In this document: positions 15,539 to 51,624 of the stretch, in pieces
Layout of the letters: each line of letters starts with the position of its first letter
Numbering within the stretch: the first letter of the stretch is position 1
Source of the DNA: a virus
Lineage: Duplodnaviria; Heunggongvirae; Uroviricota; Caudoviricetes
DNA length: 58,666 nucleotides
Virus record (IMG/VR): IMGVR_UViG_3300010413_000002
Span: 64,001 to 122,666 of that record
Reading direction: 5' to 3' (one strand)
Notes under the pieces: generated by a model
The model's database searches: none
Told to the model about the DNA's origin: nothing
The model's input: the letters and a program-made list of their open reading frames with translations, nothing else
Position numbers and translations under genes: made by a program

Positions 15539-17182
15539 ATGACAAATACTTTTACGCAAAATCGTATCAATTTAATACAAGGGTATTCTTTAGTTGATAT
15601 TTGGAAAACATTTATGTATATTACTGAATTAAGAGAATTAATACCAAATTGGCACATAGAATACATTTTTGAAAATCTTAAAAATATAATAGAAAAAAAA
15701 TCTAAAAATTTAATTTTAAATGTTCCACCAGGTCATAGTAAAACTACTATAATGATGACATTTGTTGCGATATATTTAGGAATTTATCCAGATAGTAGGA
15801 TTTTGATACTTTCTGCTGTTAAAAATGTTAGAATAAAATATGCAAGAGGACTTAGAAACATTATAGATTCAGATGCTTTTAAACAGTTGTTTAGCAATAT
15901 AGAAATAAATGAAAACGATGTTAATAGATTAGAAAATTTTTTTATTAAAAAAGTAATTGACTCTAATGGAAACATGATAGGTGGTGGACAGATAAATATA
16001 ATGTCTACAGACGCAAAAATAACTGGAACAGACTCAGAATTGGTTATAATTGACGATCCAATAGATTATAAAACTTATTTAGCTGAAGGTGTTGGTTATG
16101 TAGATAAGGTAAACAAGAATATAAATGGCTTCTTCTCAAGAAGAAGAGAGCTTATGAAGATAAAAGAAGTTCCTTTTGTTTTAATAATGCAGAGAATATG
16201 TGAAGGAGATACTACAGATTTTTTAATTAATGCTAGAAAAAGAGGAGAATGGACGCATATAGTGATTCCAATAATAGAAGAAACAAAACAACCTATAGGA
16301 CGTTCAACAAAAACTGGAAAATATCTTTATGGAAAAATATACAAAGTAAATAAATTTCGTTATGCAAGAAAATATGAAGAAGTTCTTTTTGAAAAAATTA
16401 AAAATCAAGAATCTATTGAAGAAGAAAAAGAGGCTTATCTTTATTTGGGAACGGAAAATGATTTCTATTGGCAATATTATCAAAGAGGATCTAAAAATAA
16501 AAGTTCAATATTTAATGTTAATTATATTGAAGAATATAATAAATCAGAAGTATTAATTAATGATTTTGATAAAATAATAATGTCATGGGATACTGGATTT
16601 GGAAAAAGTATGTCTGGAGACCCGTCATGTTGTACATTATGGGGTCTTAAATTATTAGAGAACGAAAGAACTAAAAGAAAAGATTTTAAAGCATATTTAA
16701 TAGATGTTTGGTTTACTCAAGAGGATTTTCCTTCATTATTAAAAAAATCTCAAGATTTAATAGAAATATACTCTCCAAATTTTATATTAGTAGAAGACAA
16801 AGCTAGTGGACAATCATTAATACAAGAATTAGAAAAAGAGTATTATGGAAAAGTTTTAGAAAATAAAGATCCAAGAAAAAATAAAAAAATTATAGCAATT
16901 AAGGTTGGATATAAATCTGGAAGTAAAGAAGATAGAGCTAAAGCGTGTTCACATTTAATAGATAAAGGTTGCATGGTCTTCCCTAAAGACTATAGAAAGG
17001 TAATATATTTATATGGAAAAAAAATAAATCCTTTAGAAGAATTAAAATATCAACTTAGAGTTTTTCCAAGCACTTCAAAAAAAATTCATGATGATGGAGT
17101 TGATAGTGTTACTCAATTTTTAAATTGGATTAAGACTACATTTGTTAAGAAAAAAAGGGAATTTAAAATATGGATCGCTTAA
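15539..17182 (+). CDS. terL: Terminase large subunit
   Basis: LNVPPGHSKT Walker A, IIDDP Walker B, SWDT and HDDGVDS nuclease motifs. Confidence 0.92.
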   Translation: MTNTFTQNRINLIQGYSLVDIWKTFMYITELRELIPNWHIEYIFENLKNIIEKKSKNLILNVPPGHSKTTIMMTFVAIYLGIYPDSRILILSAVKNVRIKYARGLRNIIDSDAFKQLFSNIEINENDVNRLENFFIKKVIDSNGNMIGGGQINIMSTDAKITGTDSELVIIDDPIDYKTYLAEGVGYVDKVNKNINGFFSRRRELMKIKEVPFVLIMQRICEGDTTDFLINARKRGEWTHIVIPIIEETKQPIGRSTKTGKYLYGKIYKVNKFRYARKYEEVLFEKIKNQESIEEEKEAYLYLGTENDFYWQYYQRGSKNKSSIFNVNYIEEYNKSEVLINDFDKIIMSWDTGFGKSMSGDPSCCTLWGLKLLENERTKRKDFKAYLIDVWFTQEDFPSLLKKSQDLIEIYSPNFILVEDKASGQSLIQELEKEYYGKVLENKDPRKNKKIIAIKVGYKSGSKEDRAKACSHLIDKGCMVFPKDYRKVIYLYGKKINPLEELKYQLRVFPSTSKKIHDDGVDSVTQFLNWIKTTFVKKKREFKIWIA

Positions 17183-49008: not shown

Positions 49009-49458
49009 TTAATCAATTTGAAAGTGTCCTCCGTCTTCTATATTTGAAAACCAACCACCCCATTTAATATTTAATCCAGTTTCATAACCAAAACGTAGTA
49101 TAATCCCAGCAATATGATGATAATATTTTATGTTCCAAGTTATTTTTCCATTTAACAATACCACAATATCTACTGCTTTACCTTTTCCTTCTTTATCAAA
49201 CTCTTGATGTTTAGATTTCTTGTTATAACCATCTTTACTTGTTACAACTTTCTTTTTATTTACTATAATCCATTTACCATCTTTAAGCTTTCTTCCTTTT
49301 TTATAAAGTTCAAATTGTTCTTCTGCTGTTCTTATTACATAAAAAACCTTTAATCTTAAAGGAGAATTTATATTAATTAAAAACTGATTTGTGTTTTCTA
49401 TGCAAAATGCTAAATTATTATTTAGATTTTTTAATAGTCTTTTGCTTCTTTTGTCCAT
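49009..49458 (-). CDS. Endolysin, M15 family L-Ala-D-Glu peptidase
   Basis: RTAEEQ..LY..GR, SKHQ, AVDIV, WGGWF, DGGHFQ. Confidence 0.88.
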   Translation of the reverse strand: MDKRSKRLLKNLNNNLAFCIENTNQFLININSPLRLKVFYVIRTAEEQFELYKKGRKLKDGKWIIVNKKKVVTSKDGYNKKSKHQEFDKEGKGKAVDIVVLLNGKITWNIKYYHHIAGIILRFGYETGLNIKWGGWFSNIEDGGHFQID

Positions 49459-49572: not shown

Positions 49573-49649
49573 TGGTGCGGTTTCTGCGACTTGAACGCAG
49601 GACATACGCCGTATCAGAGCGTTGCTCTAACCAACTGAGCTAAAACCGC
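49573..49649 (-). tRNA. trnI: tRNA-Ile(GAT)
   Basis: Loop CT-GAT-AC, CCA. Confidence 0.9.
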
Positions 49650-49658
49650 TCTATTAAG

Positions 49659-49713
49659 CGAGAGAGCAGGACTTTAACTCGGATAAACCGCTGTGTACCT
49701 ATCTCACTCTCTC
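49659..49713 (-). ncRNA. Possible tRNA relic / small RNA with GAGAGAG-CTCTCTC stem
   Basis: 7-bp terminal stem at promoter start site; degenerate interior. Confidence 0.35.
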
Positions 49714-49721
49714 TCTACTAT

Positions 49722-49751
49722 AGTATATAACTATTAATTCTATTTTGTCAA
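49722..49751 (-). promoter_or_regulatory. Sigma70-type promoter
   Basis: TTGACA-N18-TATACT. Confidence 0.6.
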
Positions 49752-50359
49752 GTATTAGACAAAATGTCTCTAATGTCTCTATTATCAATTTCGTTTCCTA
49801 TGCAATCCCAACCTTCATATTTTTCTCTTGAAAAAAGCTCTACTCTTGAAAATTCCTCATATAGTTTTTCTATTCTTTTTCTTACTTCATTTGGTTTTTG
49901 ACTATGTCTTTTTCTTTGAGACACCACACAAGAAGATATATAATTTGAAGTAGGCTTTAATACTTTTCCTTTAGTAAATAATAAACAAACTTCACAATTT
50001 GCTTTTGCGTAGTAGCCAGTTCCAAAAAAAAGAGTTCCATCTTTATTAGTTTTTGTCCAACTAAATCCTAAAGTCTTATAAGTAAATCCCCAAGATTCTC
50101 CTACTTTAATTCCTTCTTTTAATTTTGGAAATGTAACCCAAAGGAATAAAACTGCGTCTTTTTCACAAATTTTTTCTATATTCAAATTACATAATTCTTC
50201 TACAGTCATTAAATCATAATGACCGCCTGCCCCTCCTCCAAATTTTGTATTCTTATTGTTTCTTGCGTTGTATTTCCAAGGAGGTTAAGGGTCAGCATAA
50301 ATGATACTGTATTTCTTAACAATATCATCTTGCTGATTTCCTCCGTTCTTAAAATTCAT
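49748..50359 (-). pseudogene. MT-A70 family adenine methyltransferase with in-frame TAA in catalytic motif (pseudogene or recoded)
   Basis: Frame reads MNF...KKYSIIYADP*PPWKY...HYDLMTVEEL...LFLWVT...HSQKP...ELFSR; stop at 50285-50287. Confidence 0.85.
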
Positions 50360-50564: not shown

Positions 50565-51613
50565 TAACTTTTTCTTATGGTTATTAGAGTATCGTCCTTT
50601 TCAAGAAACGGTAAAGGTTCAAATCTATAGTAATTACCATCAAAATCATATTCTATTTCTTGTTTGAATTTAAATTTTAACTTTCTTTTTTTAGCTTCGC
50701 CAACTGTTATCTTTATTGGTTTTTTATAAGAAAAGCCTTTTTTAAATTTTTCAATTTCTTCTTCTATCTCCTCAATATCATCTCCATAAAAAACCAAAGG
50801 AGTGTTTTGTTTACTTTCTCTTAAAAAGTCTTTTATTGAAATTTTTTTATATTCGCTAGAATTAATAATTGTATTTATAATAACAAGATCATTTTCTTCT
50901 GCAAAACAATATATAGAAAAAGGAAAATTGATGCTTAATCTTATAGAATTAGAAGAATCAATATCAAATCCTAATTTTTTAAACTTCTTTTTGATTTTTT
51001 TAAATTTTCTTTTGCTTGTATTTGTTGGAATTTCCAAATATTTTCCTTCAAAATCTTCTTTTGTTCTGATTATGTTTGGTATTTTTGAATAATGAATATT
51101 TAAATTTATTGTATAAGTATGTTCTCCTTTTTCTTTGTATTCTTCTAGCTTATAGAACTGATACATGTGTTCTGGATAAAATAATTTATTGATTTCTTGC
51201 CAATGTTCTTTATTTTTGTTTGGATAAAATTGAGGAGGATTTGCTTCCACATCAGTAAATATCTTACATATATAGAATTTGTTTTTATATTCGACTAAAT
51301 CTCCAGTATAGAATGAGGTTTTTTCTATTGTAAATTCTTGTATATATTTCATTATTTGTTTAGCTTCTTCTTTTGAAGAACATTTATATTTTATTAAATC
51401 ATTATCATCTTCTTTATCTCTGCCCCAAACAAAAAGTTCTCCATCCTTTAATTCTGGATAATCATAAGAACATATACAAAACTTTTCATCTTTTGTATAG
51501 TAAGGTTTTCTGTTTCCTCTTTTTGCTCCATCTAAAAATTTACAATTAGTTATTTTGCCTTTAATAGTTAGTCCATCTTCTTGTATTTTGAGTGTATGTT
51601 GAATTTCAATCAT
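50564..51613 (-). CDS. Multi-domain hypothetical protein; N-terminal domain shared with 57244
   Basis: IQH...QED.LT.KGKI...ICS...P.L...FVWG. Confidence 0.6.
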   Translation of the reverse strand: MIEIQHTLKIQEDGLTIKGKITNCKFLDGAKRGNRKPYYTKDEKFCICSYDYPELKDGELFVWGRDKEDDNDLIKYKCSSKEEAKQIMKYIQEFTIEKTSFYTGDLVEYKNKFYICKIFTDVEANPPQFYPNKNKEHWQEINKLFYPEHMYQFYKLEEYKEKGEHTYTINLNIHYSKIPNIIRTKEDFEGKYLEIPTNTSKRKFKKIKKKFKKLGFDIDSSNSIRLSINFPFSIYCFAEENDLVIINTIINSSEYKKISIKDFLRESKQNTPLVFYGDDIEEIEEEIEKFKKGFSYKKPIKITVGEAKKRKLKFKFKQEIEYDFDGNYYRFEPLPFLEKDDTLITIRKS

Positions 51614-51624
51614 TGTTTTCCTTT

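Follow-up and report, generated by a model that had tools for sequence, protein, structure and literature searches.

We analyzed a 58,666-nucleotide (nt) stretch of DNA from a Caudoviricetes virus (the window; bases 64001–122666 of IMG/VR virus record IMGVR_UViG_3300010413_000002, a 122,666-base-pair (bp) sequence with direct terminal repeats and approximately 26% G+C) and focused on a gene for an MT-A70 N6-adenine methyltransferase whose catalytic motif is interrupted by an in-frame stop codon. The gene occupies 203 codons of the minus strand, and its codons 21–28 read TAT GCT GAC CCT TAA CCT CCT TGG, or Y-A-D-P-stop-P-P-W. Between the ATG at 50359 and the terminal TGA at 49750–49748, GAC lies at 50293–50291, CCT at 50290–50288, TAA at 50287–50285, two further CCT codons at 50284–50282 and 50281–50279, and TGG at 50278–50276. 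Translation of the frame matches the Pfam MT-A70 profile (PF05063) from end to end (positions 1–172 of 172, E = 6.1e-27, 95 bits versus a cut-off of 23.9). Related genes with the same interruption are called carriers below, and one of these, L058, served for comparison with the window gene. The features of the locus, all on the minus strand, are:

49748–50359, minus: MT-A70 N6-adenine methyltransferase gene, assigned by translation and Pfam PF05063; 203 codons with an in-frame TAA at codon 25
50288–50359, minus: coding segment 1, 24 codons, MNFKNGGNQQDDIVKKYSIIYADP; its ATG overlaps the stop of an upstream open reading frame (ORF) of 71 amino acids (ATGAATTTTAA)
50339–50344, minus: Shine–Dalgarno (SD)-like GGAGGA inside the ORF, 2 nt 5′ of the hairpin
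50292–50336, minus: extended RNA hairpin; 5′ arm 50336–50319, loop 50318–50311, 3′ arm 50310–50292
50288–50290, minus: proposed take-off codon CCT (Pro24), which would occupy the P site while TAA is in the A site
50285–50287, minus: in-frame stop TAA, the proposed skipped codon; carriers always have a stop here
50282–50284, minus: proposed landing codon CCT, which would be re-paired by peptidyl-tRNA-Pro and not decoded a second time
49748–50281, minus: coding segment 2, from CCT TGG (P-W of DPPW) to TGA, delimited with the omega comparison to L058
50207–50209, minus: internal ATG chosen by gene callers, giving a 153-amino-acid product that lacks DPPW
7385–7461, minus: phage tRNA-Pro(UGG), a candidate hopping tRNA called by ARAGORN, which could read every CCN codon

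Comparison with homologs placed the interruption within methyltransferase motif IV. The contiguous four-residue motif is absent from the genomic frame and becomes contiguous only if TAA and one CCT remain undecoded. Alignment of the window gene to each of 56 IMG/VR homologs leaves a two-residue gap opposite stop-P in all 56, and the full-length members among the 120 closest database proteins contain four-residue motifs only (DPPW in 89, DPAW in 3, and DAPW, DPCW and DLPW in one each). Because the homologs all have a contiguous four-residue motif, the window gene carries exactly 6 extra bases, and the sole internal stop of the gene sits within them. The initial annotation had described this 6-nt excess inside the motif, an otherwise open and motif-complete 203-codon frame, and a product from the ATG at 50209 without the catalytic motif; re-reading of positions 50296–50276 (GCT GAC CCT TAA CCT CCT TGG) and the profile and ORF comparisons above bear out each of these points.

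Both flanks of the stop are under purifying selection. L058, the closest carrier to the window gene and recovered from a different sample, has 71% protein identity to it and shares the upstream 71-amino-acid ORF and the overlapping start. The L058 site reads GAT CCT TGA CTG CCT TGG, with the stop in the same place and the same 6-nt excess, and with a different stop codon and a different codon after it. We computed omega (the ratio of nonsynonymous to synonymous divergence) between the window and L058, a pair whose synonymous sites are near saturation (proportion of synonymous differences, pS, 0.63–0.70). Omega was 0.15 for the 24 codons before the stop (pS 0.66), 0.08 for codons 26–50 between the stop and the internal ATG, a part that has no start codon of its own and is the most constrained of the gene, and 0.15 for the remainder past the internal ATG. 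Judged by sequence comparison, the interruption is neither an artifact nor a dead gene, and the interrupted frame is very probably decoded into a full-length methylase.

Distribution and codon pattern of the interrupted motif

Carriers comprise 14 diverged MT-A70 lineages: the window gene, L058, and 12 more recovered by degenerate pattern scans, one of them in IMG/VR and the rest in Joint Genome Institute (JGI) and GenBank metagenome contigs. The search pattern did not include the 5′ hairpin arm, the SD-like motif or a neighboring nuclease as criteria, and the sequences of several carriers recurred identically in contigs of different samples. All 14 lineages conform to (I)IYADP-stop-(P/L)-P-W and each contains the 6-nt excess. 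Together with the omega values of 0.08–0.15, the 13 further lineages answer the question raised by the initial annotation of whether homologs share the insert under selection on both sides.

The stop codon is TAA in six lineages, TGA in five and TAG in three. Retention of a stop at this position, even as its identity varies among all three stop codons, shows that the stop itself is under selection. Before it stands CCN in 14 of 14 carriers; after it, 11 have CCN, 3 have CTN and none has anything else, and CCN TGG follows, such that the base directly after the stop is C in every carrier. The flanking codons can thus pair with one peptidyl-tRNA throughout (CCN-stop-CCN in 11 lineages, CCN-stop-CTN in 3). 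With a middle-position G·U allowed, an NGG anticodon can pair with either form of the post-stop codon (CCN or CUN), and this codon is the first re-pairing site downstream. The conserved feature is CCN before the stop and C-pyrimidine-N after it, a codon that tRNA-Pro(UGG) can re-pair.

Sense-codon versions of the site were not recovered. None of the pattern matches with TGG at the stop position was an MT-A70 gene, and a six-residue motif is missing from all 56 IMG/VR homologs and from the full-length proteins among the 120 nearest. A pattern scan of one genome per species for 185,579 prokaryotic species found no MT-A70 carriers, and an IMG/VR scan without the I-Y-A requirement (D-P-stop-P-P-W-x-Y) gave L073 as the only genuine match. 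Searches of annotated phage records for close relatives of the window's genome returned only tRNA matches, and an exact 29-mer from the site had no match in IMG/VR, where near-identical records may lie outside the set searched. We found no other copies of the cassette in the window's genome.

Several candidate carriers were examined and set aside. Short database homologs of 141–158 amino acids were all explained otherwise. L067–L070 (positions about 1420–1445) and L157 (about 60–75) encode the Trp of DPPW with TGA (GAT CCA CCC TGA); these contigs appear to use a code in which TGA specifies Trp, and gene callers cut their genes at the same internal Met as the window gene. L063–L066 have an open frame and no canonical start: these loci hold tandem MT-A70 genes (for example L063:1369–1500), the second of which is open through KKYSIIYADPPW and has none of the starts ATG, GTG and TTG in the interval from the preceding stop to the motif; this second gene may initiate in an unusual way or through coupling to the first. 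L158 and L160 reflect miscalled TTG starts, and L159 a shift at a homopolymeric run. L158 (640–720) and L159 (500–578) hold the same MT-A70 gene with an A8 or A9 run just 5′ of KKYQIIYADPPW, and the difference in run length, which puts the TTG start of L159 out of frame, could represent phase variation or a homopolymer error.

A carrier-specific hairpin and Shine–Dalgarno-like motif

The strongest signals at the site, an RNA hairpin and an SD-like motif, had escaped the initial annotation. Directly upstream of the stop, the RNA is predicted to form an extended hairpin. In the window this hairpin has 18 base pairs, one bulged A and an 8-nt loop and ends one base before the take-off codon (position −1, the final base of the Asp codon). 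The 3′ arm consists of the codons for S-I-I-Y-A-D, and the 5′ arm, 17–41 nt upstream, lies in an N-terminal extension that is present in carriers and mostly missing from non-carriers. The minimum free energy is −20.9 kcal/mol (z −7.1), or −27.7 kcal/mol (z −6.9) with flanks included, which places the hairpin in the 0.05% tail of 60-nt segments of the genome and among its approximately five most stable folds, the others including tRNAs. Three further 60-nt regions of equal stability (−23 to −27 kcal/mol) lie outside the window, at 16431–16525, 49611–49670 and 51529–51616 (−) of genome C1. A genome-wide survey (122.7 kb) identified 6 sites at which identical codons surround an in-frame stop between open stretches, and a strong upstream hairpin occurs only at the MT-A70 gene (−20.9 versus −0.4 to −9.6 kcal/mol). 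Since it is the sole one of the 6 with such a hairpin, we do not attribute the matched codons at the MT-A70 stop to chance.

The hairpin is present in 14 of 14 carriers (15–22 bp, −15 to −30 kcal/mol, z −3.0 to −9.5), whereas in 43 non-carriers the stability of the same stretch does not exceed that of shuffled sequence (mean −9.4, median z 0.0; Mann–Whitney p = 1.6e-8). Uninterrupted runs in the basal helix extend 6–9 bp in carriers versus 4–5 bp in non-carriers, the latter equal to the shuffled level. Covariation in the basal helix involves the synonymous third bases of the codons for Tyr, Ala and Asp; opposite the third base of Ala, for example, 7 lineages have U-A, 6 have G-C and 1 has A-U. 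Overall, 97.9% of cells pair and 3 of 7 pairs show double changes. None of 500 shuffles reached the observed values, slid registers paired at 43% or less, and RNAalifold independently recovered the same basal helix. Lineages differ in the frame in which the 5′ arm is read and in the peptide that it encodes (VGV, GLH, NQQ), which argues that pairing is what the arm conserves, and the presence of G·U pairs indicates that the folded molecule is the sense RNA. By comparison, the peptide KKYSIIYADP encoded around the 3′ arm is conserved equally in carriers and non-carriers. Sequence similarity among carriers is concentrated here: a 60-nt island (−48 to +12) has 84–90% nucleotide identity among six carriers and both of its flanks approximately 50%. 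Because similarity is limited to this island, we rejected long co-conversion tracts.

An SD-like element accompanies the hairpin. Of the 14 carriers, 11 contain a pentamer of AAGGAGGTGAT no more than 16 nt 5′ of the hairpin, versus 1.2 expected (p ~ 5e-10). Along the linear sequence, 45–60 nt separate the motif from the landing codon, and the two come near each other only when the hairpin is folded. In the window, GGAGG (50340–50344) can also pair with the landing-site CCUCC (50280–50284) to form an outer helix around the hairpin, with C-CCU-UAA looped out; the anti-SD sequence of 16S rRNA likewise reads CCUCCUU. Such an outer helix was seen in approximately 8 of 14 carriers and we rejected it as a conserved element, since L124 and L135 keep the SD-like motif where no such pairing is possible. 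An in-frame CUG in the 5′ arm was likewise rejected as a start codon, because the window has CAG at this position. A 39-codon ORF in the +1 frame (window 50209–50328, minus) begins at an ATG within the 5′ arm and crosses the stop region. This ATG is probably a by-product of GAUGAU complementing the Ile-Ile codons AUCAUC, and similar out-of-frame ATGs occur in 7 carriers. No structure was found 3′ of the site: the 60 nt from the landing codon have a median z of −0.03, and RNAalifold returned only a 2-bp element.

A proposed ribosome hop and its alternatives

The frames flanking the stop are the same, and so only a hop in frame, readthrough or true termination is possible at the site; +1 and −1 frameshifts were rejected because the alternative frames soon stop and the motif is lost. 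We favor, as the probable explanation of the sequence patterns, a programmed +6 hop of peptidyl-tRNA-Pro that bypasses the stop, restores DPPW and is aided by the hairpin. That the stop is bypassed in translation, as the initial annotation had suggested, and is no lesion is supported by conservation in 14 lineages, two-sided purifying selection, the use of all three stop codons and the lack of any sense codon at the site. Under this model the TAA would be one part of a cassette composed of the SD-like motif, the extended hairpin, CCN, the stop, C(C/U)N and CCN-UGG.

The proposed reaction would begin with a pause, in which the ribosome stalls after translating Y-A-D-P; at this point the P site would contain peptidyl-tRNA-Pro on CCU, and the A site UAA. 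Proline at the C terminus is a poor context for termination, and a C-terminal Pro-Pro motif is known to impair termination (PMC3834316). The upper part of the hairpin would by then have re-formed outside the ribosome, with the G+C-rich basal 9–12 bp held open like a spring, unable to close while their 3′ strand (the S-I-I-Y-A-D codons) is still in the exit channel. Zipping of the basal pairs would pull the mRNA forward and help the tRNA leave CCU, after which the tRNA would re-pair 6 nt on, at the first NGG-pairable triplet (CCU in the window, CCN or CUN in relatives). Decoding would resume at CCU UGG to yield a full-length protein containing YADPPWKY with an intact catalytic motif, and ribosomes that terminate at TAA would release a 24-residue peptide. 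We infer a +6 hop instead of readthrough, and the hairpin as its driver. Only the product of the +6 hop has the four-residue motif of the family. Landing at +9, on the last CCN, was rejected, since the post-stop codon would then be unconstrained, yet it is always CCN or CTN.

Our guess for the hopping tRNA is the phage tRNA-Pro(UGG), which has a normal 7-nt anticodon loop (CUUGGGG), a U·U mismatch closing the anticodon stem and its own encoded CCA end. All 21 tRNA genes of the 122.7-kb genome fall in the window (2687–5060, plus; 7385–7535, minus; 49573–49649, minus), including a cluster of 15. One of them, tRNA-Ile(GAU), follows the methylase gene on its strand at a distance of ~100 nt; downstream of this tRNA, a 149-amino-acid ORF (49009–49458, minus) weakly matches Peptidase_M15_4, a D-Ala-D-Ala carboxypeptidase family (E = 0.0014, which does not reach the cut-off), and the ORF product may be an endolysin-type enzyme.

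Several observations weigh against the hop. Sequence alone cannot separate it from readthrough, and 12 of the 14 carriers were found with a pattern requiring I-Y-A-D-P, which makes the number of carriers a minimum and biases the set toward this context. The initial annotation had emphasized matched codons around the stop; these are present in the window (CCT TAA CCT), but identity of take-off and landing codons is not conserved, occurring in only 4 of 14 lineages. In the CUN carriers L058, L119 and L140, the +6 landing needs a middle-position G·U pair, and a perfectly matched CCU at +9 would instead give DPW. The take-off codon is mostly CCG, which pairs strongly. The role of driver is assigned to the hairpin by analogy, and its 3′ arm would be inside the ribosome at take-off; stem-loops of the T4 gene 60 type, 3′ or in the A site, are absent from the carriers (median z 0). 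Finally, synthetic stop-hops are inefficient, at approximately 1%.

Programmed readthrough, whereby a near-cognate tRNA decodes the stop to give a product with a six-residue loop DP-X-(P/L)-PW, is an unlikely explanation. It accounts equally for the open frame and the two-sided selection, the invariable C after the stop is a weak termination context in bacteria, and the post-stop codon would under readthrough simply encode Pro or Leu. However, all three stops are used, with UAA, the least leaky stop, in 6 lineages, such that no particular inserted residue is selected, and no homolog tolerates a sense codon at the stop position or the six-residue motif. The conserved hairpin is 5′ and no 3′ structure is present, whereas known readthrough stimulators lie 3′ of the stop. 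A suppressor tRNA is also missing from the genome, as none of its 21 tRNAs has a stop anticodon; together with the use of TAA as the main stop (ending 116 of 162 long open stretches), this count leaves stop-codon reassignment or suppression unsupported.

True termination would make this a split, regulatory or decaying gene with a 24-amino-acid peptide and perhaps a catalytically dead 153-amino-acid product from the ATG at 50209, with a possible role in DNA binding or regulation. Gene callers predict exactly such ORFs. This explanation is improbable because codons 26–50, which would then go untranslated for want of a start of their own, are under purifying selection (omega 0.08), and the upstream 24 codons are constrained too. 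The interruption has moreover outlasted synonymous saturation in 14 lineages, each with a complete motif-bearing frame, and termination leaves the carrier-specific hairpin and SD-like motif unexplained. The same retention of the stop and its 6 nt, under selection on both sides, led us to discard the suggestion of the initial annotation that an excision footprint had killed the gene.

Loss of the 6 nt might instead occur at the RNA level: a hairpin behind RNA polymerase would shorten the RNA–DNA hybrid and the nascent CCU end would realign on the next CCU, leaving some mRNAs without UAACCU. The hairpin ends right at the repeat, the site contains a short direct repeat of the form CCN...CCN, and hairpins behind RNA polymerase lead to pausing and forward translocation, as at intrinsic terminators. 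The codons nevertheless differ in 10 of 14 lineages, often at the third base, which would leave a mismatched RNA 3′ end that codon–anticodon wobble would tolerate, and slippage gives no reason for the skipped triplet always being a stop. We know of no natural example of such a polymerase jump and regard it as very improbable.

An assembly or sequencing artifact, or a recent inactivating insertion such as a transposon footprint, can be given almost no weight, even though the record is single and metagenome-derived: an independent assembler produced the same gene structure, 13 other lineages from many samples carry the interruption with different stop codons, and the purifying selection on both sides and the co-evolved RNA signals are likewise at odds with it. 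In the separate Logan assembly (SRR14699974) we found the identical 153-amino-acid truncated ORF with the same 139-nt and 289-nt neighbor spacings, a comparison based on the ORF call and spacing and on reads possibly from the window's own sample.

Nuclease association and relation to known bypassing systems

A PD-(D/E)XK endonuclease gene lies directly upstream of the cassette in five lineages (Pfam PDDEXK_5, E = 3.6e-10 and 6.2e-8, above the cut-off). A 3′ nuclease remnant is found in the L115 lineage, and also in L125, L134 and L139, which are copies of the lineage of L137, where the gene is whole. In total, 6 of the 13 other carrier lineages have a nuclease gene or remnant versus 0 of 68 non-carrier loci (331 kb). 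The window's genome contains no nuclease homolog at E <= 1, and in both the window and L058 an unrelated 71-amino-acid ORF with no nuclease homolog occupies the nuclease position. L137 and L125 are 99.9% identical save for a 1,395-bp segment (L137:320–1714 versus L125:642–659) that holds nuclease codons 1–124, with an 18-nt overlap at the junction; because the two are otherwise this similar, the nuclease is present or absent within one population.

Nuclease identity between carriers (62–86%) exceeds that of the adjoining methylase bodies (28–54%), as in L130 versus L137 (84% and 28%), which suggests that nuclease and recoding module were joined as one unit, at the insert, to unrelated bodies. 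The methylase bodies of carriers form no clade: with the arm-encoding residues left out, an approximately unbiased (AU) test rejects their grouping (log-likelihood difference 158, p = 7e-7), and the carrier state changes no fewer than 3 times on a quickly built tree of 153 sequences; the trees use ~180 columns and have long branches. The sole Protein Data Bank match of the nuclease profile was 2OST_A, a "putative endonuclease" (E = 0.19, collinear and of the same length), which is probably the homing endonuclease I-Ssp6803I. The AlphaFold model of the nuclease was unusable (predicted local distance difference test score, pLDDT, 34).

On these comparisons, we tentatively suggest that the cassette is or was mobile with the nuclease. 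The initial annotation had proposed a bypass that would limit methylase output; the nuclease link in relatives points to another origin, an insert traveling with a selfish nuclease. The insert site is the most conserved DNA of MT-A70 genes, with the insert-less form TAYGCNGAYCCNCCNTGG, and by analogy with T4 the 6-nt insert may have begun as a target-site disruption that protected against the nuclease, with the hop rescuing the methylase. A rather unlikely proposal in its entirety is that these genes constitute a first natural in-frame stop-hop family, in which a compact cassette that restores DPPW spreads between unrelated methylase genes with a homing-type nuclease whose target the insert disrupts. 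If true, this would add to T4 gene 60 a second case, independent and minimal, of a selfish nuclease arranged with a translationally bypassed immunity insert.

The proposed hop has the geometry of synthetic stop-hops, reportedly made in E. coli by Weiss, Dunn, Atkins and Gesteland in 1987. The initial annotation had called stop hopping with matched codons established, which holds for synthetic constructs in E. coli (reviewed in PMC5009743). In these constructs, as would occur in the window, the tRNA leaves the codon before the stop and re-pairs on the one that follows, and a single amino acid is thereby specified by 9 nt; they are engineered, low-level and without stimulatory signals, whereas the cassette is natural, spans 14 lineages and has a hairpin and SD-like motif. 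Of natural in-frame stop hopping, a 2016 review by Atkins and colleagues stated that "no occurences are known" and considered that natural stop-hops may be hidden among presumed readthrough events (PMC5009743). Our search of full-text literature on bypassing, hopping, MT-A70/DPPW and in-frame stops in methylases found no description of the cassette.

In T4 gene 60, as in the cassette, the take-off codon is followed immediately by a stop, the landing codon is cognate to the tRNA that takes off, the host is a phage gene and the insert lies in conserved coding DNA. Gene 60 also has a 5′ stem-loop at a similar distance (26 nt to the tetraloop there, 23–28 nt to the loop in most carriers), an SD-like element and a link to a nuclease (mobA there, PD-(D/E)XK in 6 of 13 lineages here). 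The two differ in that the gene 60 gap is 50 nt and ours 3 nt (a 6-nt displacement), a take-off/A-site stem-loop is present there and neither such a stem-loop nor a 3′ barrier here, and a Gly tRNA and topoisomerase subunit are replaced by a Pro tRNA and methylase. The SD-like motif is 6 nt before the landing site in gene 60 and 5′ of the hairpin in carriers, in which we identified no carrier-specific nascent-peptide signal and noticed no sequence similarity to gene 60. Because the 50-nt gap and A-site stem-loop are absent, the cassette is not a member of the gene 60 family. For the gene 60 5′ stem-loop, a forward pull by mRNA leaving the ribosome has now been proposed (bioRxiv 10.1101/2024.12.09.627546), and the bypassed insert of T4 mobA/gene 60 is described as shielding the donor from its own nuclease (cited in 10.1101/2022.08.31.505936).

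Further parallels come from mitochondria and from frameshifting. The byps of Magnusiomyces capitatus mitochondria (cited in PMC5009743) are likewise short skipped inserts in coding sequence with a presumed origin in mobile DNA; they are 27–55 nt long and occur in many copies and genes of one mitochondrial genome, whereas here a single 6-nt insert occurs at one homologous site in one gene family of many phages. The position of the hairpin at the 5′ edge of the shift site, its proposed re-forming behind the ribosome and its proposed favoring of forward over backward mRNA movement recall the refolding hairpins of frameshift sites, which concern +1 and −1 shifts in constructs and viral sites and no stop hop. 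Such upstream refolding hairpins are said to modulate frameshifting in work by Cho et al. in PLoS One in 2013 and by Hu et al. in Nucleic Acids Research in 2016.

We rate the MT-A70 cassette, on its sequence features, as belonging with programmed translational bypassing, and it is the best candidate so far for a natural ribosome hop over a stop codon. Natural bypassing is known from few systems, comprising T4 gene 60 with its homologs and the yeast mitochondrial byps, and single-stop hops are known only from synthetic constructs. A minimal cassette with three separable signals would offer a small system in which to ask whether mRNA folding at the ribosome exit can push the ribosome forward, a role that is a matter of debate in gene 60. 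Should the link to the nuclease be upheld, selfish nucleases would have joined with bypass inserts more than once. As gene callers split or truncate these methylases, the methylation capacity of phages is likely under-annotated, and an in-frame stop in a catalytic motif does not automatically denote a pseudogene.

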